Source: Thermoproteota archaeon (GTDB lineage Archaea; Thermoproteota; Nitrososphaeria_A; Caldarchaeales; Calditenuaceae). Taken from it: 64,000 nt of DNA. The DNA lies in NCBI GenBank assembly GCA_030550235.1, contig JAUQPU010000002.1:231164-295163 (forward strand), given 5' to 3'. Both the position numbers and the translations under genes were made by a program. Within the stretch, counting starts at the first letter, position 1. The number at the start of each line of letters is the position of its first letter. A model generated the notes under the pieces. It did no database searches, was not told the origin of the DNA, and saw only the letters and a program-made list of their open reading frames with translations. Positions 24,309 to 31,045 of the stretch are shown here, one piece after another.

Positions 24309-25262
24309 GTGGAGAAGCTGTCTTGGATAAGGGATTTGGCTGAGAGGGTTAGGGCGGAGATACATAAGTCGATTGTGGGGATGGACACGGCTATTGACTC
24401 GCTTCTAATCTCTCTCCTCGTCCAAGGTCATGTCCTGATTGAGGGTGTACCGGGTCTTGCAAAGACGTACCTAGCCAAGGCCTTCGCAAACACCCTCTCA
24501 CTATCATTCAAGAGGATACAGTTCACAAACGACCTCCTGCCAAGTGACATAGTTGGTGGGATGATCTTTGACCGTCGTAGTGGGGAGTTTGTATTCAGGC
24601 CTGGGCCTATATTCGCAAACATAGTCCTCGCCGACGAGATTAACCGGGGGGCGCCGAGGACACAGTCCGCCCTCCTCGAGGCCATGCAGGAGTTCCAGGT
24701 GACTGTTGAGGGGAAGACATACCAACTCCCCCGACCATTCATGGTCATTGCAACTCAGAACCCCATTGAGCTTGAGGGAACATACCCACTCCCAGAGGCC
24801 GAGCTTGACAGATTCCTGGTCAGGGTTCTCGTCAACTATCCCAGCCGAGACGAGGAGATCGAGATTCTTAGGCTTAAGAATAGGCACGGCGAGGAGCTCA
24901 ACATCTCCCCGGTCGCGGATGCTAGGCAAGTCTTGGAAGCTATTGACGCTGTGAAGACCGTGTATATTGACGACGACGTTCTAGGATATATTGTTGACAT
25001 TGTGAGGGAGTCGAGAAGCTTGCCCGACGTAGTTATGGGGGCTAGCACGCGGGCTGAGACAGCCCTACTCTATGGCTCAAAGGCATATGCGGCAATGATG
25101 GGTAGAGACTACGTGATACCGGATGACGTGAAATACGTCACACCCCTAATACTCAACCATAGGATAATTCTGAGGAGGCAGGTCTCCTCTATTGGCAGGG
25201 AGGAGCATGAGACAATGCTCTTCGCCAGGAAAGTGCTTGAGAAGGTGGAGGCACCCAAGTAA
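24309..25262 (+). CDS. MoxR-family AAA+ ATPase
   Basis: GTG start. Walker A GVPGLAKT, Walker B LADEINR, sensor/arginine region. Length 317 aa, typical MoxR. Confidence 0.85.
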   Translation: MEKLSWIRDLAERVRAEIHKSIVGMDTAIDSLLISLLVQGHVLIEGVPGLAKTYLAKAFANTLSLSFKRIQFTNDLLPSDIVGGMIFDRRSGEFVFRPGPIFANIVLADEINRGAPRTQSALLEAMQEFQVTVEGKTYQLPRPFMVIATQNPIELEGTYPLPEAELDRFLVRVLVNYPSRDEEIEILRLKNRHGEELNISPVADARQVLEAIDAVKTVYIDDDVLGYIVDIVRESRSLPDVVMGASTRAETALLYGSKAYAAMMGRDYVIPDDVKYVTPLILNHRIILRRQVSSIGREEHETMLFARKVLEKVEAPK

Positions 25263-26567
25263 ATGCTTACAAGGGAGGGTGCCCTACTCCTAATCAGCCT
25301 CTCAGGCTGGATAATATTCATCTCCACACTACTTTACCATCCCTTCATCTTCCTAGCCTCCTTCTTCCTACAGACATTCTTCACTACCTACATCCTACTA
25401 GCTAATAGGAAGCTTCGGAGGCTAGACTTCAGTGGCCTCAAAGTCGAGCGGGCTGTTGAGCCCCAAAGAACTGGTGACAAGACCCGCTTGAAGGTGACGC
25501 TGGTAGTGAAGCTTGACGGCGAAGGCAGGCTCTACATACAGGCGATCGAGAGGCCGCCATATGGGACACATCTGATGGAGGGGTCGCTAAGACCTGAGGG
25601 CGCCGTGGGAGATGGACAGACTCTCAGCTCTTCATATGTTCTAGAGGTCTCACCCTCAATGGGACTTGTACGATTCGGAAAGATCACGCTACGAATACAC
25701 GACCCGCTTAGGCTCTGCTACGTCTCCAGGGAAATGGAGGGTGAGCAGGAGGTATTCATCCCATTGGGGGAGCAGCTGGTTGGAGCCGTCTATGGCAGGC
25801 TCCGGGCATCGTGGATTAGGCCGCCCATGGGGCTGGGTTTTAGAGGGCTTGTCGGCTATGACGACGAGTTCTCAGGCGTCAAGTCCTACGAGCTGGGCGA
25901 CAGGATCAGAGATATTCACTGGATGAGATATGCCCAGCAGGTCGACGAGGCGGAGATAGTGGCGAAGAAGTATGTCAAGAAGGGCGAGGTGACGCTCCAC
26001 ATAGTCGTCGACTGCTCACCATCCATAAACGCCGGGGAGGATGCCTCGCTCGTCACGGACATCTCCACGCTCCTCCGCCGGCTATGTCAGACAGCAGAAG
26101 AGGAGGGGAACCCTGTACAGTTCTGGCTGATAAACCCCGAGCTAAACCAGGCTGAGAAGGTCTCGCACCGCAGATTATTCTCAAGAGTGGCGATGGAGCA
26201 GTATATCGCGAGGGTCTTTCCATCTAGGGGGAAGGATGACGGAAAGATAGCAGAGGCCTTCTCTAGGGCTATCAAGGGCTCGAGCGTTGTCTTCTTTATC
26301 GTTAACCCGCCTTCGCCTAATGTGGAGGTGGTTGAGGATATGATTGAGACCTGTAGGGAGGCTGGTGCGAGATATGTCATATGCGTCCCCGACATGTCTA
26401 GCTACTTCTCAAGCCCCTCGGAACAGACCGACCGGCTCTTGGAGCTGGACAGGTTCTTCAAGGATAAGTGGGTCTCGAGGTTTAAGGATAGGGGCTCAGT
26501 CATCGAGATTAGGAAGGGGTTTGCGGTTGACATCACGAGGGAGGCTTTGAGGAGGGGGAGTGAATGA
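25263..26567 (+). CDS. DUF58-family protein (vWA-like partner of MoxR) with N-terminal TM hairpin
   Basis: Signature YELGDRIRDIHWMRYAQ. Starts at the TAAATG junction with moxR. Confidence 0.7.
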   Translation: MLTREGALLLISLSGWIIFISTLLYHPFIFLASFFLQTFFTTYILLANRKLRRLDFSGLKVERAVEPQRTGDKTRLKVTLVVKLDGEGRLYIQAIERPPYGTHLMEGSLRPEGAVGDGQTLSSSYVLEVSPSMGLVRFGKITLRIHDPLRLCYVSREMEGEQEVFIPLGEQLVGAVYGRLRASWIRPPMGLGFRGLVGYDDEFSGVKSYELGDRIRDIHWMRYAQQVDEAEIVAKKYVKKGEVTLHIVVDCSPSINAGEDASLVTDISTLLRRLCQTAEEEGNPVQFWLINPELNQAEKVSHRRLFSRVAMEQYIARVFPSRGKDDGKIAEAFSRAIKGSSVVFFIVNPPSPNVEVVEDMIETCREAGARYVICVPDMSSYFSSPSEQTDRLLELDRFFKDKWVSRFKDRGSVIEIRKGFAVDITREALRRGSE

Positions 26568-27274
26568 GGGCACGGCTAGTCGAGACGTCTTTGATGGCTG
26601 GAATCCTCCTCACGCCCCTACTCCTAAACCTGGACTATCTAGCCCGCATCTCCCTTACACCCTTCCTAATCCTCGGATGTCTCTCCCTCCTCTCGACCTA
26701 TCTCCCAGCCAAATATCAACACCTGATAATCCCACTCATATATCTGCCAGCCATCACGAGCCTCGTAATACTTGTTCTGGAGAGGATTCCACAATATATA
26801 ATAGACCTGGCCAGCGGATACTTGATCAGCATACCGTTTATATCCATGATCGGCCTTATCAAAAGCCCCAATCTCAGAACCACTGTTATAAGCTACATCA
26901 CGAGCCTCACAAGCTCCTATCTAGTCTGGGTAATAGCGATAGAGTCTACAGAACACGGTGGACAGCTGTTCCTCTCCCTGATAAACGTGTTCATCAGCAG
27001 GGAGGCGTGGGAGAGGCCCCAACCCCCCCAGATCTTCGCGGCTCTAACCGCTTTCTCATCCATAGCACTGGTCATATACCTCTGGCGGTCTTATGGAGCT
27101 GTGTTTAGACGGGAGCAGGGAGATGCCCTCTTACTATCAGCCACAGCGGCAAGCCTCGCGGTGGCCTCGGTAGTTCTCTACTCCCTATTTTATGATGACT
27201 CGGTGGCATTGGGACTTATCATCGCGGCCTCCCTAACCCTAGCCGCTACACTGAAGGTTGGTGTATTGAAGTGA
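26564..27274 (+). CDS. polytopic membrane protein, unknown function
   Basis: Six or more hydrophobic helices. Its start overlaps the stop of the upstream gene. Confidence 0.5.
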   Translation: MRARLVETSLMAGILLTPLLLNLDYLARISLTPFLILGCLSLLSTYLPAKYQHLIIPLIYLPAITSLVILVLERIPQYIIDLASGYLISIPFISMIGLIKSPNLRTTVISYITSLTSSYLVWVIAIESTEHGGQLFLSLINVFISREAWERPQPPQIFAALTAFSSIALVIYLWRSYGAVFRREQGDALLLSATAASLAVASVVLYSLFYDDSVALGLIIAASLTLAATLKVGVLK

Positions 27275-30300: not shown

Positions 30301-30304
30301 GAGA

Positions 30305-31045
30305 GTGGATAAATACAGCCTGAGATATACTACGCTCATGCGGAGCAGCATCATATCCTATCTAGCCCTCACACTCCTACTCTCACTCATCCCGACTGCC
30401 TTTAGCCAGGCCGCGAGAGTGCCAGGAACCAACTACTCGACAGCACTGGAGCTGACGGTAGGTGAGCACACTTTCTATCTCGAGCGTGGAGATGTACACT
30501 ATTTTGCAGTAAGGCTAGAGAGGGATGACACGCTCTACATCCTCCTAACACCTCCAACCAACCAAGACTTTGACATGGCTTTGGTCTCGCCATCTAGAGA
30601 TGTTATTGAGCTCTCAGTCAGAGCGACAGGCTTCACCGAGAGGATAACATATACCGCCCCAAGCAGCGGCATATACTACATCGTTGTCTTCCCCTTCGGA
30701 GCGTCGAGCGGCGCCTACAGCCTATTAATCGGGATCTCGAAGCCAAGAGTCACCACAGTCATATCCACAGTCACCGTAGCCTCTTACATCACACTTACTC
30801 AGAAAGAGCTTCGAGACGTTGTCATAGTCATGACTAGGGAGAGTTACCGGACTGTAACAGTGACCAGCCAGCAGTTAGTGGGCGGTGGCCTGGAGCTCCT
30901 CGGCTGGTCTGTCCTCTCGCTCGCCATATTAGCAGTTGCTGTTCTAATTAGGGACGGCATTGTAAGGGCTAGGCCGCTAGCTGGCAGTGGGAGGGTGAAA
31001 GAAGGTGAAGGCAGCGGGCAGGGCGCCGGTGTCGAGGAAACCTAG
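30305..31045 (+). CDS. secreted PPC (pre-peptidase C-terminal)-like beta-sandwich domain protein with C-terminal TM anchor
   Basis: Signal peptide. [35 protein letters not shown]...DFDMALVSP resembles the PPC domain. C-terminal TM plus Gly/Glu tail. Confidence 0.45.

Follow-up and report, generated by a model that had tools for sequence, protein, structure and literature searches.

In the 64-kb stretch of DNA from a hot-spring archaeon analyzed here (the window), six ORFs follow one another on the plus strand between positions 24309 and 31045 (24309-25262, 25263-26567, 26564-27274, 27271-28854, 28870-30300 and 30305-31045). The preliminary description of this locus counted seven chained genes in the interval; the same-strand chain was confirmed, but its seventh gene, which encodes 111 aa (23959-24294), lies upstream of 24309. 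The stop/start overlaps at 26564 and 27271 were also confirmed (ATGA at 26564-26567, GTGA at 27271-27274), and the TAA/ATG abutment reported at 25259-25265 exists, but is located at 25260-25265. A further junction, at 30300/30305, is probably not real, since the alignment of orthologues and a conserved box upstream place the start of the last gene at ATG 30338. Within the cassette discussed below (23959-28854), internal genes have Shine-Dalgarno-like sites and junctions of 0 to -4 nt, and a conserved TATA box stands only before the 111-aa gene, designated g0.

This predicted archaeal BRE/TATA element, TAAACATTTATAGG (23918-23931, plus strand, TATA at 23924-23929), lies about 30 nt 5' of g0. 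In 8 of 10 species a near-identical box, GGTTAAACATTTATAGGA, lies equally far from the start codon, and the two most distant species have GGGAAAT(A/C)TTTTTCAC at the same place. This conservation and spacing suggest that the element is a promoter. The probable first gene of the operon is g0. The g0 product (plus strand) is a small membrane protein with one N-terminal transmembrane segment (TM, residues ~8-30), followed by a basic, helical C-terminal portion that is predicted to lie in the cytoplasm. The gene is conserved at 35-60% identity, and in all members of the window's clade it abuts moxR or overlaps it. In three of five distant loci described below (L015 to L017) a small TM gene (82-110 aa) occupies the g0 place, and in L014 one lies nearby; homology of g0 to these genes was not demonstrable (hhalign probability 6%).

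The next gene (24309-25262, plus strand) encodes a MoxR-type AAA+ ATPase of 317 aa (MRP/AAA_3 type), and its GTG start is preceded at 6-13 nt by the Shine-Dalgarno-like site GGGGGTGA. The earlier assignment to this family was upheld by matches to Pfam AAA_3 (1.7e-63; 212.8 bits against a cut-off of 27, profile positions 1-131 of 131) and AAA_lid_2 (66.7 bits, 1.5e-18), and to PDB entry 2r44 (1.5e-74). Walker A (GVPGLAKT) and Walker B (LADEINR, within IVLADEINR) are intact in the translation, and ATPase activity is predicted.

Directly after moxR lies a gene for a protein of 434 aa (25263-26567, plus strand), previously called DUF58. At the family level this call was borne out, as PF01882 matched all six orthologues (best 3.6e-10), while the window copy itself falls below the Pfam cut-off (21.4 bits against 23.4, residues 206-261 only). 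Precomputed PF01882 matches exist in the distant orthologues of L012, L014 and L018, and weak ones in L016 and L017. The motif DDEFxGVKxYxxGDxxRxIHW is present in the family, and the DUF58 signature FxGxRxYxxGDxxRxIxW appears in the window protein as DDEFSGVKSYELGDRIRDIHW, followed by HIVVDCSPSIN; the gene abuts moxR. The protein consists of an N-terminal two-helix membrane hairpin (residues 6-46; Pro27 is invariant), a middle part rich in beta structure and the vWA-like DUF58 domain. The predicted hairpin, a K/R-rich stretch after TM2 and the positive-inside rule point to a cytoplasmic location of the large DUF58 domain; Makarova et al. called archaeal Ig-vWA proteins of this kind 'likely secreted' (PMC5898192). 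DCSPS corresponds to DxSxS, a MIDAS-like motif. Because the orthologues of L017 and L018 have lost this motif, and that of L015 has an altered form of it, MIDAS-mediated binding is not universal in the family. The vWA-like partner of the cassette is the DUF58 protein itself.

The third gene of the interval (26564-27274, plus strand) encodes a polytopic membrane protein of 236 aa that belongs to no known family. Instead of the six TM segments assigned previously, about eight hydrophobic spans were found by hydropathy, and from the hydropathy and K/R profiles both termini are probably cytoplasmic. Conserved motifs are IPLIYxPAxxSL and LASGYLxSxPF. No Pfam or NCBIfam match and no sequence relative in the PDB were found, and Transglut_core and DUF3488 were absent from the family (Pfam, E<=1). 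The protein is homologous to the products of same-position genes in L014 to L018 (BLASTP 2e-19 to 2e-3).

The fourth gene (27271-28854, plus strand) encodes a type-I membrane ectoprotein of 527 aa. As proposed earlier, it is of secreted type and C-terminally anchored, with an N-terminal signal-like helix, which the structure model shows as a signal peptide, and a TM at ~484-506 that is followed by a basic tail. The richness in N-glycosylation sequons was likewise substantiated (six N-X-S/T observed against 1.7 expected from shuffled sequences, P=0.003), and three of the six sequons are invariant across 11 orthologues. According to the structure model (pLDDT 88), the ectodomain is all-beta and contains about five beta-sandwich domains (~30-116, 125-236, 254-332, 342-400 and 403-479), the last of which resembles transthyretin and CarboxypepD_reg; no vWA, transglutaminase core or alpha/beta domain is present in the model. 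Fold searches also returned beta-sandwich modules only. There was no Pfam or NCBIfam match and no PDB sequence relative, and neither BatD (PF13584) nor DUF4350 (PF14258) was matched in the 28 members of the family (E<=1). No vWA or transglutaminase profile matched the 236-aa or the 527-aa protein, which supports the earlier view that the genes after MoxR and DUF58 are not BatA-type vWA or TgpA-type proteins, but an uncharacterized polytopic protein and a large anchored ectoprotein. Members of either family were found in Caldarchaeales only.

The ORF of the following gene opens at GTG 28870 (476 aa), and its start is probably the conserved ATG 28888, giving a protein of 470 aa (28888-30300, plus strand). 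It is a DppC/OppC-type ABC permease by its match to BPD_transp_1 (2.4e-23, 83.3 bits, residues 285-468, profile positions 2-182 of 184), and NCBIfam Opp4C was matched at 2.3e-53, below the equivalog cut-off. The family and the ectodomain reported earlier were thus recovered, with a loop of ~215 aa rather than 230 aa between a first TM at residues 22-40 and a second at ~258. Such a long loop is normal in a subfamily found elsewhere inside complete Dpp/Opp operons. The permease shares 50% identity with P0045 over 468 aa that include the loop, and P0045 belongs to an SBP_bac_5-DppB-DppC-DppD operon; by these sequence comparisons the permease is an ordinary long-loop Opp/Dpp-type subunit. It is an orphan, as stated previously, in that the 64-kb window yielded no SBP_bac_5, DppB or DppD/F among those ORFs of 150 aa or longer that were scanned, or that are annotated in L001, an identical locus (all but a few his-region ORFs at 42.6-46.1 kb). 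The sole ABC system among the scanned ORFs is of the CUT1 sugar type (53-58.7 kb). The Dpp partners must be encoded elsewhere; an oligopeptide ABC transporter has been predicted in Calditenuis (PMC12979851).

The last gene (30338-31045, plus strand, ATG start by orthologue alignment) encodes a small anchored ectoprotein of 235 aa, with a signal peptide, a PPC-like beta-sandwich, a Thr-rich linker and a C-terminal TM. On the earlier PPC domain call, PF04151 gave weak matches in all six orthologues (best 1.5e-4), all of them below the cut-off (22.3 bits against a gathering score of 25.9 in the window protein). A predicted TATA-like box, GGATAAATAC (30307-30316, plus strand), lies just 3' of the dppC stop. 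GCGGATAAATACAGCC or a close variant precedes the gene in 10 of 10 species, and the start codon follows 21-24 nt past the box, the spacing expected of a leaderless archaeal mRNA. Conservation and spacing suggest that this box is a separate promoter for the PPC-like gene. Its family was seen in seven GTDB species only, all of which share one collinear 20-kb block. The 3' end of the gene overlaps a convergent PFOR-beta gene by 4 nt.

The preliminary description called for a synteny comparison, and the order MoxR, DUF58, polytopic protein (207-251 aa), ectoprotein (~500 aa) was found in five more distant Caldarchaeales loci (L014 to L018), where the DppC- and PPC-like genes are absent from beside the cassette. 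The four core proteins are homologous, their order is identical, and their starts and stops overlap or abut. The gene after the cassette encodes FBPase in L014, L016 and L017, a HEPN/NTase protein in L015 and TrmO in L018; the flanks of these cassettes thus differ and are unrelated. The DppC- and PPC-like genes adjoin the cassette in one clade only (seven GTDB species). Since the whole ~20 kb is collinear there, housekeeping genes included, their adjacency carries no functional signal. Across the order, identity is 55-61% for MoxR, 17-30% for the ectoprotein, 25-31% for the polytopic protein and 17-25% for DUF58. The much faster divergence of the partners fits a co-evolving surface complex. 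A 150-aa TM protein encoded 5' of moxR gave weak, sub-threshold DUF4129 matches in L016 (0.066) and L017 (1.6e-4); a DUF4129-like gene is absent from the window and its clade.

On balance, with a little better than even confidence, the functional unit appears to be a five-gene operon (23959-28854) that represents a variant, specific to Caldarchaeales, of the MoxR–DUF58 membrane modules that are widespread. Its members would be the small TM protein, MoxR, DUF58, the ~8-TM protein and the 527-aa ectoprotein, with the DppC- and PPC-like genes as neighbors outside the cassette. The proposed biochemical function of this cassette, and a probable one, is to assemble or remodel a stalk complex at the cell surface. 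A cytoplasmic MoxR AAA+ ring would act via the membrane-tethered, vWA-like DUF58 adaptor, which would engage a membrane complex by the loops or tails that this complex exposes to the cytoplasm. The polytopic protein and the glycosylated stalk protein, which spans the membrane once and has five beta-sandwich domains, may make up this target, probably together with the small TM protein, and ATP hydrolysis would power assembly, insertion or conformational remodeling of the target. A chaperone-assisted surface complex, as suggested previously, is therefore plausible for the core cassette, while the proposed share of the DppC- and PPC-like proteins was not borne out.

MoxR–vWA pairs are described as dedicated assembly or remodeling chaperones (PMC9976466; PMC3893208). 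In NorQ/NorD, CbbQ/CbbO and RavA/ViaA, a MoxR AAA+ hexamer is paired with a vWA/MIDAS adaptor, and it is the adaptor that docks a specific target for remodeling or cofactor insertion (PMC9976466, PMC3893208, PMC9489729). These pairs may serve as a working analogy for the action of the cassette. Their adaptors are soluble and their targets known enzymes, whereas the cassette adaptor is predicted to be membrane-tethered, DxSxS is not kept in all its orthologues and its target is proposed from gene linkage alone.

Three settings are known in which a MoxR–DUF58 operon also encodes membrane proteins and beta-sandwich surface proteins. The Bat, Borrelia BB0170-BB0176 and Rhizobium cmd (RL3499-3502) operons share with the cassette a start with MoxR and DUF58 followed by small TM proteins, and they end in a large protein (BatD) with a signal peptide and C-terminal TM(s), as the cassette ends in an anchored ectoprotein (PMC5700661). 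Their phenotypes are envelope-related (PMC5700661), and mutation of the R. leguminosarum operon leads to envelope defects, as cited in that paper. In contrast, the cassette has no BatA/BatB vWA membrane proteins (searched in the 236-aa and 527-aa proteins and their relatives), no TPR or SH3 proteins (BatC/BatE) and no BatD (0 of 28 ectoproteins), and its host is an archaeon without a periplasm or outer membrane. The actinobacterial fn3–MoxR–duf58–tgm cluster (Bifidobacterium PFNA; TgpA-type) combines MoxR, DUF58 and a polytopic protein with an FN3 beta-sandwich glycoprotein that is secreted or anchored (PMC8430577). However, the polytopic partner in the cassette has no transglutaminase domain, there is no linked kinase, the beta-sandwich proteins of the two systems show no sequence relationship, and a DUF4129-like protein occurs, weakly, only in Caldarchaeum-type relatives. 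The arCOG01314 (DUF4350) neighborhood is archaeal like the cassette, and by Table 2 of Makarova, Galperin & Koonin 2015 (PMC5898192) it has a MoxR/GvpN-family ATPase, Ig-like plus vWA (DUF58-type) proteins, multi-TM proteins and anchored Ig-like ectoproteins. Its signature protein also has the layout of the cassette ectoprotein, in which a signal peptide precedes a large ectodomain and a TM lies at the C-terminus. The cassette differs in having no DUF4350/GldG-like flavodoxin-fold protein, an all-beta ectoprotein of five sandwiches whose family has no Pfam model, and an unclassified 8-TM partner.

For the arCOG01314 neighborhood, Makarova et al. proposed a secretion function, and the similar parts list and ectoprotein topology would allow the cassette to be an export apparatus, with the polytopic protein as conduit and the ectoprotein as external component. 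This is unlikely, as DUF4350 was matched in none of the 28 family members, the model is not flavodoxin-like, the cassette has no gene for a substrate linked to it, and the secretion role of arCOG01314 is itself a prediction. It is less likely still that all six or seven genes, DppC- and PPC-like included, form one operon and one chaperone-assisted surface-assembly system. The common strand, short spacers (15-33 nt before dppC, 4-37 nt before ppc), conserved order in all seven clade species (DppC 63-81% identical) and a permease without Dpp partners in the window agree with it. Moreover, no T-tract terminator was seen 3' of the ectoprotein gene in the clade, and GGAGG precedes dppC in L011 and L012, so that transcription may read through into dppC. 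Against this stand the collinearity of unrelated housekeeping genes, the five loci that keep the four core genes without both extras, the conserved ppc box with its leaderless spacing, and the close relatives of the permease in complete Dpp operons. The preliminary description had allowed that the downstream genes might prove independent and not conserved with MoxR and DUF58, and half of this was found, for the DppC- and PPC-like genes.

A role in membrane-proximal degradation or quality control, with an unrecognized peptidase in the polytopic protein or ectoprotein, is quite improbable. Three-gene operons of the MoxR–vWA–TGL type are very common and have been predicted to act in degradation (PMC3495828), the cassette can be likened to MoxR–vWA–YebA/TgpA transglutaminase-like peptidase operons, and DUF4129, weakly matched upstream in L016 and L017, otherwise ends TgpA-type proteins. 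However, neither Transglut_core nor any peptidase was matched in a cassette protein or orthologue, the ectoprotein holds beta-sandwich modules only, and the window's clade has no DUF4129-like gene. Pfam bpMoxR matches the ATPase at 1.5e-12, as might be expected of a mobile anti-virus or conflict system of MoxR–vWA type (bpMoxR ternary systems), but the AAA_3 match is far stronger, PADLOC returned two marginal P-loop matches and nothing else, and no beta-propeller or effector gene is present. Such a system is highly improbable here, as the cassette lies among housekeeping genes and appears, from the identity of MoxR, to be vertically inherited across the order.

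The preliminary description placed a MoxR–DUF58 operon of seven genes at 24309-31045, whereas the ORF listing holds six consecutive plus-strand ORFs there: MoxR (317 aa, 24309-25262), a DUF58 protein (434 aa, 25263-26567), a polytopic protein (236 aa, 26564-27274), an ectoprotein (527 aa, 27271-28854), a DppC-like permease (476 aa, 28870-30300) and a PPC-like protein (246 aa, 30305-31045). The seventh gene is likely the 111-aa ORF at 23959-24294 (g0), which lies outside this span, 14 nt upstream of moxR. An ORF of 182 aa in another frame (26560-27108, +), which overlaps the gene for the 236-aa protein and has a Pro/Ser/His-rich, low-complexity translation, is almost certainly spurious and may have contributed to the count. 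The gene chain itself proved largely real. The overlaps ATGA (26564-26567) and GTGA (27271-27274) were found as described, and only the moxR/DUF58 junction (TAA/ATG) had been placed one base off, its position being 25260-25265. Shine-Dalgarno-like sites precede the internal genes of the operon, and the predicted promoter of the core operon is a TAAACATTTATAGG box, strongly conserved and located some 30 nt ahead of g0, with its TATA at 23924-23929. Directly upstream of this promoter, and kept in all members of the clade formed by the close relatives of the window, is a gene pair (21182-23901, +) encoding a 668-aa protein with a polytopic N-terminal part plus 4Fe-4S and CCG (HdrD-like) domains, and a 5-formyltetrahydrofolate cyclo-ligase (23185-23901), the two genes overlapping by 4 nt.

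The assignment of the 317-aa protein to MoxR was confirmed by Pfam (AAA_3, 1.7e-63, plus AAA_lid_2). Its Walker A and Walker B motifs are intact in the sequence, and it matches the solved Cytophaga MoxR 2r44 at 1.5e-74. The DUF58 assignment holds at the level of the family, with matches in 6/6 orthologues (best 3.6e-10); the match of the 434-aa protein of the window is sub-threshold (21.4 bits vs a cut-off of 23.4). The DUF58 signature DDEFxGVKxYxxGDxxRxIHW is present, and after it comes HIVVDCSPS, with a MIDAS-like DxSxS motif that is lost in two distant orthologues. A profile search for PDB relatives of this protein returned nothing meaningful. Its N-terminal hydrophobic stretch of 40 residues is broken by an invariant proline and was read as a two-helix hairpin; since a K/R-rich segment comes next, the large DUF58 domain would be cytoplasmic and able to meet MoxR. 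The vWA-type partner of the ATPase is the DUF58 protein, not one of the proteins encoded downstream.

For the 236-aa protein, averaging over the family gave about eight hydrophobic spans, and the distribution of K/R points to a cytoplasmic position of both termini. It contains two conserved Pro/Gly/Ser-rich motifs. No match was obtained in Pfam, NCBIfam or the PDB (the latter searched by profile), and no relatives were found outside Caldarchaeales.

The 527-aa protein likewise had no Pfam or NCBIfam match, and a profile search of the PDB gave no meaningful relatives. Structure prediction (AF2) with nine close sequences was unusable (pLDDT 47.6), and a 28-sequence alignment from the profile search yielded a model with pLDDT 88.1 and pTM 0.68. 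Apart from a signal-peptide helix and a long C-terminal helix, which spans the TM anchor and a basic tail, the model is almost helix-free and consists of about five beta-sandwich domains. The protein has six sequons vs 1.7 expected, three of them invariant among 11 orthologues, an excess and invariance that fit an N-glycosylated ectodomain. This agrees with its earlier description as sequon-rich, secreted and C-terminally anchored. Proposed searches for vWA or transglutaminase folds came out negative: vWA, Transglut_core, BatD and DUF4350 were matched by 0/28 family members in Pfam, which gave only weak CarboxypepD_reg, PEGA and similar matches, and Foldseek with the full-length model against the PDB returned generic multi-Ig/MG chains only (TM-scores <=0.17), which do not indicate a function.

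Exact matches of the locus come from hot-spring MAGs of Caldarchaeales, which bear the label Nitrososphaerota or Calditenuaceae. Loci encoding orthologues that share 40-70% identity with the 527-aa protein are collinear over about 20 kb (ThiW and the HdrD-like protein, MTHFS, the cluster, PFOR genes, thermosome), and because of this collinearity synteny within the clade is uninformative on which genes belong together. A search of 1.84 billion representatives gave 33 proteins matching the profile of the 527-aa family, nearly all of about 500 aa and aligned end-to-end; named members are from Calditenuis fumarioli, Caldiarchaeum subterraneum, Caldarchaeum sp. and other Caldarchaeales. The Caldarchaeales were formerly known as Aigarchaeota.

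Five family members, 17-30% identical to the protein of the window, are encoded in quite differently flanked loci (L014-L018), which provide five independent contexts outside the clade. In 5/5 of these the order is MoxR, DUF58 protein, polytopic protein (207-251 aa) and a protein of about 500 aa, with starts and stops that abut or overlap, and pairwise BLAST showed the four core proteins to be homologous across the window and the distant loci. A small TM protein of 82-110 aa is located before MoxR in L015-L017, and nearby in L014. The conserved unit is a cassette of MoxR, the DUF58 protein, the 8-TM protein and the ectoprotein, headed in the window by g0, a small TM protein. Across the order MoxR retains 55-61% identity, whereas the DUF58, polytopic and ectoproteins drop to 17-31%, the pattern expected of a conserved motor serving a fast-evolving, co-adapting surface complex.

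The 3' neighbour of the cassette is a HEPN/nucleotidyltransferase pair in L015, TrmO in L018, and a class V fructose-1,6-bisphosphatase gene in the three Caldarchaeum-type loci (L014, 9686-10837; L016, 9640-10761; L017, 9524-10645, only 11 nt from the cassette). This adjacency in three independent loci probably reflects conserved local synteny rather than function. Near the cassette of L015, from a Calditenuis fumarioli-like genome, the catalytic subunit of an A-type ATPase (10795-14133) contains an intein that includes a homing-endonuclease domain of the LAGLIDADG type.

The Caldarchaeum-type loci have three additional same-strand genes before moxR (L014, 2615-4179; L016, 3477-4950; L017, 3627-5095). 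These encode an N-terminally anchored protein of about 250 aa (weak CarboxypepD_reg match in the L014 copy), a 150-aa TM protein (weak DUF4129 matches in L016 and L017, weak DUF4381 match in L014) and a TM protein of 82-109 aa; in L014 the trio is separated from moxR by an oppositely oriented gene for a TrmB-family regulator. TgpA-type systems may be distantly connected, to judge from the resemblance to DUF4129. The genes for the 250-aa and 150-aa proteins are absent from the window, in which tblastn gave no match. Homology was not demonstrable by hhalign between g0 and the small upstream genes, between g0 and the DUF4129-like 150-aa protein, or between the PPC-like protein and the 250-aa ectoprotein (the three pairings together, 0.2-13% probability).

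The DppC-like and PPC-like genes had been included in the same surface-assembly system, a reading that the comparative data contradict and that is now quite improbable. Neither gene is located beside the cassette in any of the distant loci (0/5). The PPC-like family, of which the 246-aa protein gave a sub-threshold PPC match, was detected in only seven species (one genome per GTDB species scanned), 7/7 with the same collinear block. Moreover, a box GCGGATAAATACAGCC (30307-30316), at or just after the dppC stop, is conserved in 10/10 species, and in all ten the ppc start codon follows it by 21-24 nt, the geometry of a leaderless archaeal transcript. This moves the ppc start in the window to ATG 30338 (235 aa), in agreement with the NCBI annotation, and the stop-start coupling proposed at 30300/30305 disappears. 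For dppC, the start is most likely the conserved ATG 28888. An A/T-rich box 30-35 nt upstream of it is confined to the closer species; in the two most distant ones GGAGG takes its place, and no T-tract terminator was seen by inspection after the ectoprotein gene, so that read-through into dppC is still conceivable. In clade locus L007 a GC-rich stretch of 161 nt (11534-11694) separates the ectoprotein gene from dppC, compared with 15-55 nt in other loci. The last 4 nt of ppc (31042-31045) are shared, tail-to-tail, with the convergent gene for the PFOR beta subunit (31042-32040, minus), leaving zero intergenic space for a terminator.

The permease has a clear OppC/DppC-type domain (residues 285-468) and thousands of relatives, among them proteins of 466-508 aa (most 470-480) with about 50% identity over 96-97% of the length. 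Those bearing names are Chloroflexota; as only some entries are named, a horizontal origin is not argued. One relative, P0045, aligns through the entire external loop of about 215 aa and is encoded in a standard SBP_bac_5–DppB–DppC–DppD operon. The long loop, emphasized earlier as a 230-aa ectodomain, is thus a subfamily trait and not peculiar to this locus. Among the scanned ORFs of the window no Dpp partner genes were found, and the sole ABC system seen was a sugar-type CUT1 set (53-58.7 kb). An oligopeptide ABC transporter has been predicted for Calditenuis (PMC12979851).

The cassette resembles three known systems. Bat/BB0170-0176 operons combine MoxR, DUF58, TM proteins and an anchored BatD (PMC5700661), but BatA, BatB and BatD were not found here, in line with the earlier view that this is not a classic Bat layout. 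The bifidobacterial fn3–MoxR–duf58–tgm cluster (PMC8430577) differs by its transglutaminase. The closest parallel is the neighbourhood of arCOG01314/DUF4350 in archaea, with MoxR, vWA, Ig-like and TM proteins, for which Makarova et al. predicted a complex acting in secretion or membrane remodelling (PMC5898192), but the cassette has no DUF4350 and, lacking the defining component of each parallel, is assigned to none of them. The partners are as unusual as first claimed, although the system is smaller. It is best read as a module of a familiar type, in a variant peculiar to the order, that adds two unnamed protein families and whose function is inferred. By analogy with studied MoxR–vWA pairs (PMC9976466, PMC3893208), the ATPase ring would act through the membrane-tethered DUF58 adaptor to assemble or remodel a membrane complex, which the polytopic protein would form together with the stalk-like glycoprotein. 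A tentative, low-confidence proposal is that this MoxR–DUF58 pair has the 8-TM protein and the glycosylated five-domain stalk protein as its dedicated client, possibly a membrane anchor or stalk of the Caldarchaeales envelope; the cytoplasmic ATPase would then act through the membrane on an extracellular structure, controlling how it is assembled or which conformation it adopts. A secretion apparatus, as one alternative predicted for the arCOG01314 neighbourhood, draws on the same kind of inference and is unlikely. A degradative system, in which the ATPase would serve proteolysis, is very improbable, as a peptidase domain was nowhere found in the cassette proteins. A defence system was rejected, as a PADLOC scan gave no support for it.

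MoxR–DUF58 operons are among the commonest uncharacterised membrane modules in bacteria and archaea. To our knowledge, the client protein is known for none of them, and the cell envelope of Caldarchaeales is still undescribed. Here the pair is locked, order-wide, to no more than two or three membrane proteins, which are small and lineage-specific, and this compact cassette, with one partner confidently modelled, could serve to study how the ATPase and its adaptor act on their membrane partners. If the dedicated-client proposal is true, no MRP-type MoxR–DUF58 system before this one would have had a substrate that is defined and tractable, and the two new families would represent an order-wide envelope module. 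For annotation, the two unnamed families can be labelled MoxR/DUF58-associated, a label that the neighbouring genes for the DppC-like and PPC-like proteins should not receive, as they are not part of the system. A member of the Calditenuaceae was recently cultivated and proteomics data exist (MassIVE MSV000093641, PMC12979851), making expression and complex formation testable.

Several other loci of the window were also noted. Two adjacent ORFs of about 340 aa (4847-5884 and 5881-6894, +), with a stop/start overlap, and a 181-aa ORF (6938-7483, +) had no Pfam match at 1e-5. Directly downstream is the gene for an SPFH/Band-7 protein (7483-8448, +) whose C-terminal part bears zinc ribbons, and 4847-8448 (+) may be another uncharacterised membrane-associated operon. 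The CUT1 transporter (534-aa binding protein, two minus-strand permeases and two plus-strand MalK-type ATPases, within 46594-58724) adjoins three GFO/IDH/MocA oxidoreductases, a DUF4432 protein and a creatininase-family protein; the region resembles an island for the utilisation of carbohydrates or inositol, outside which lies a MoaA-like radical-SAM gene (46594-47613). A lone N6/N4 DNA methyltransferase gene (34164-35303, +), for which no restriction partner was seen, occupies the same position in all clade relatives and adjoins a GT2 glycosyltransferase gene on the opposite strand.
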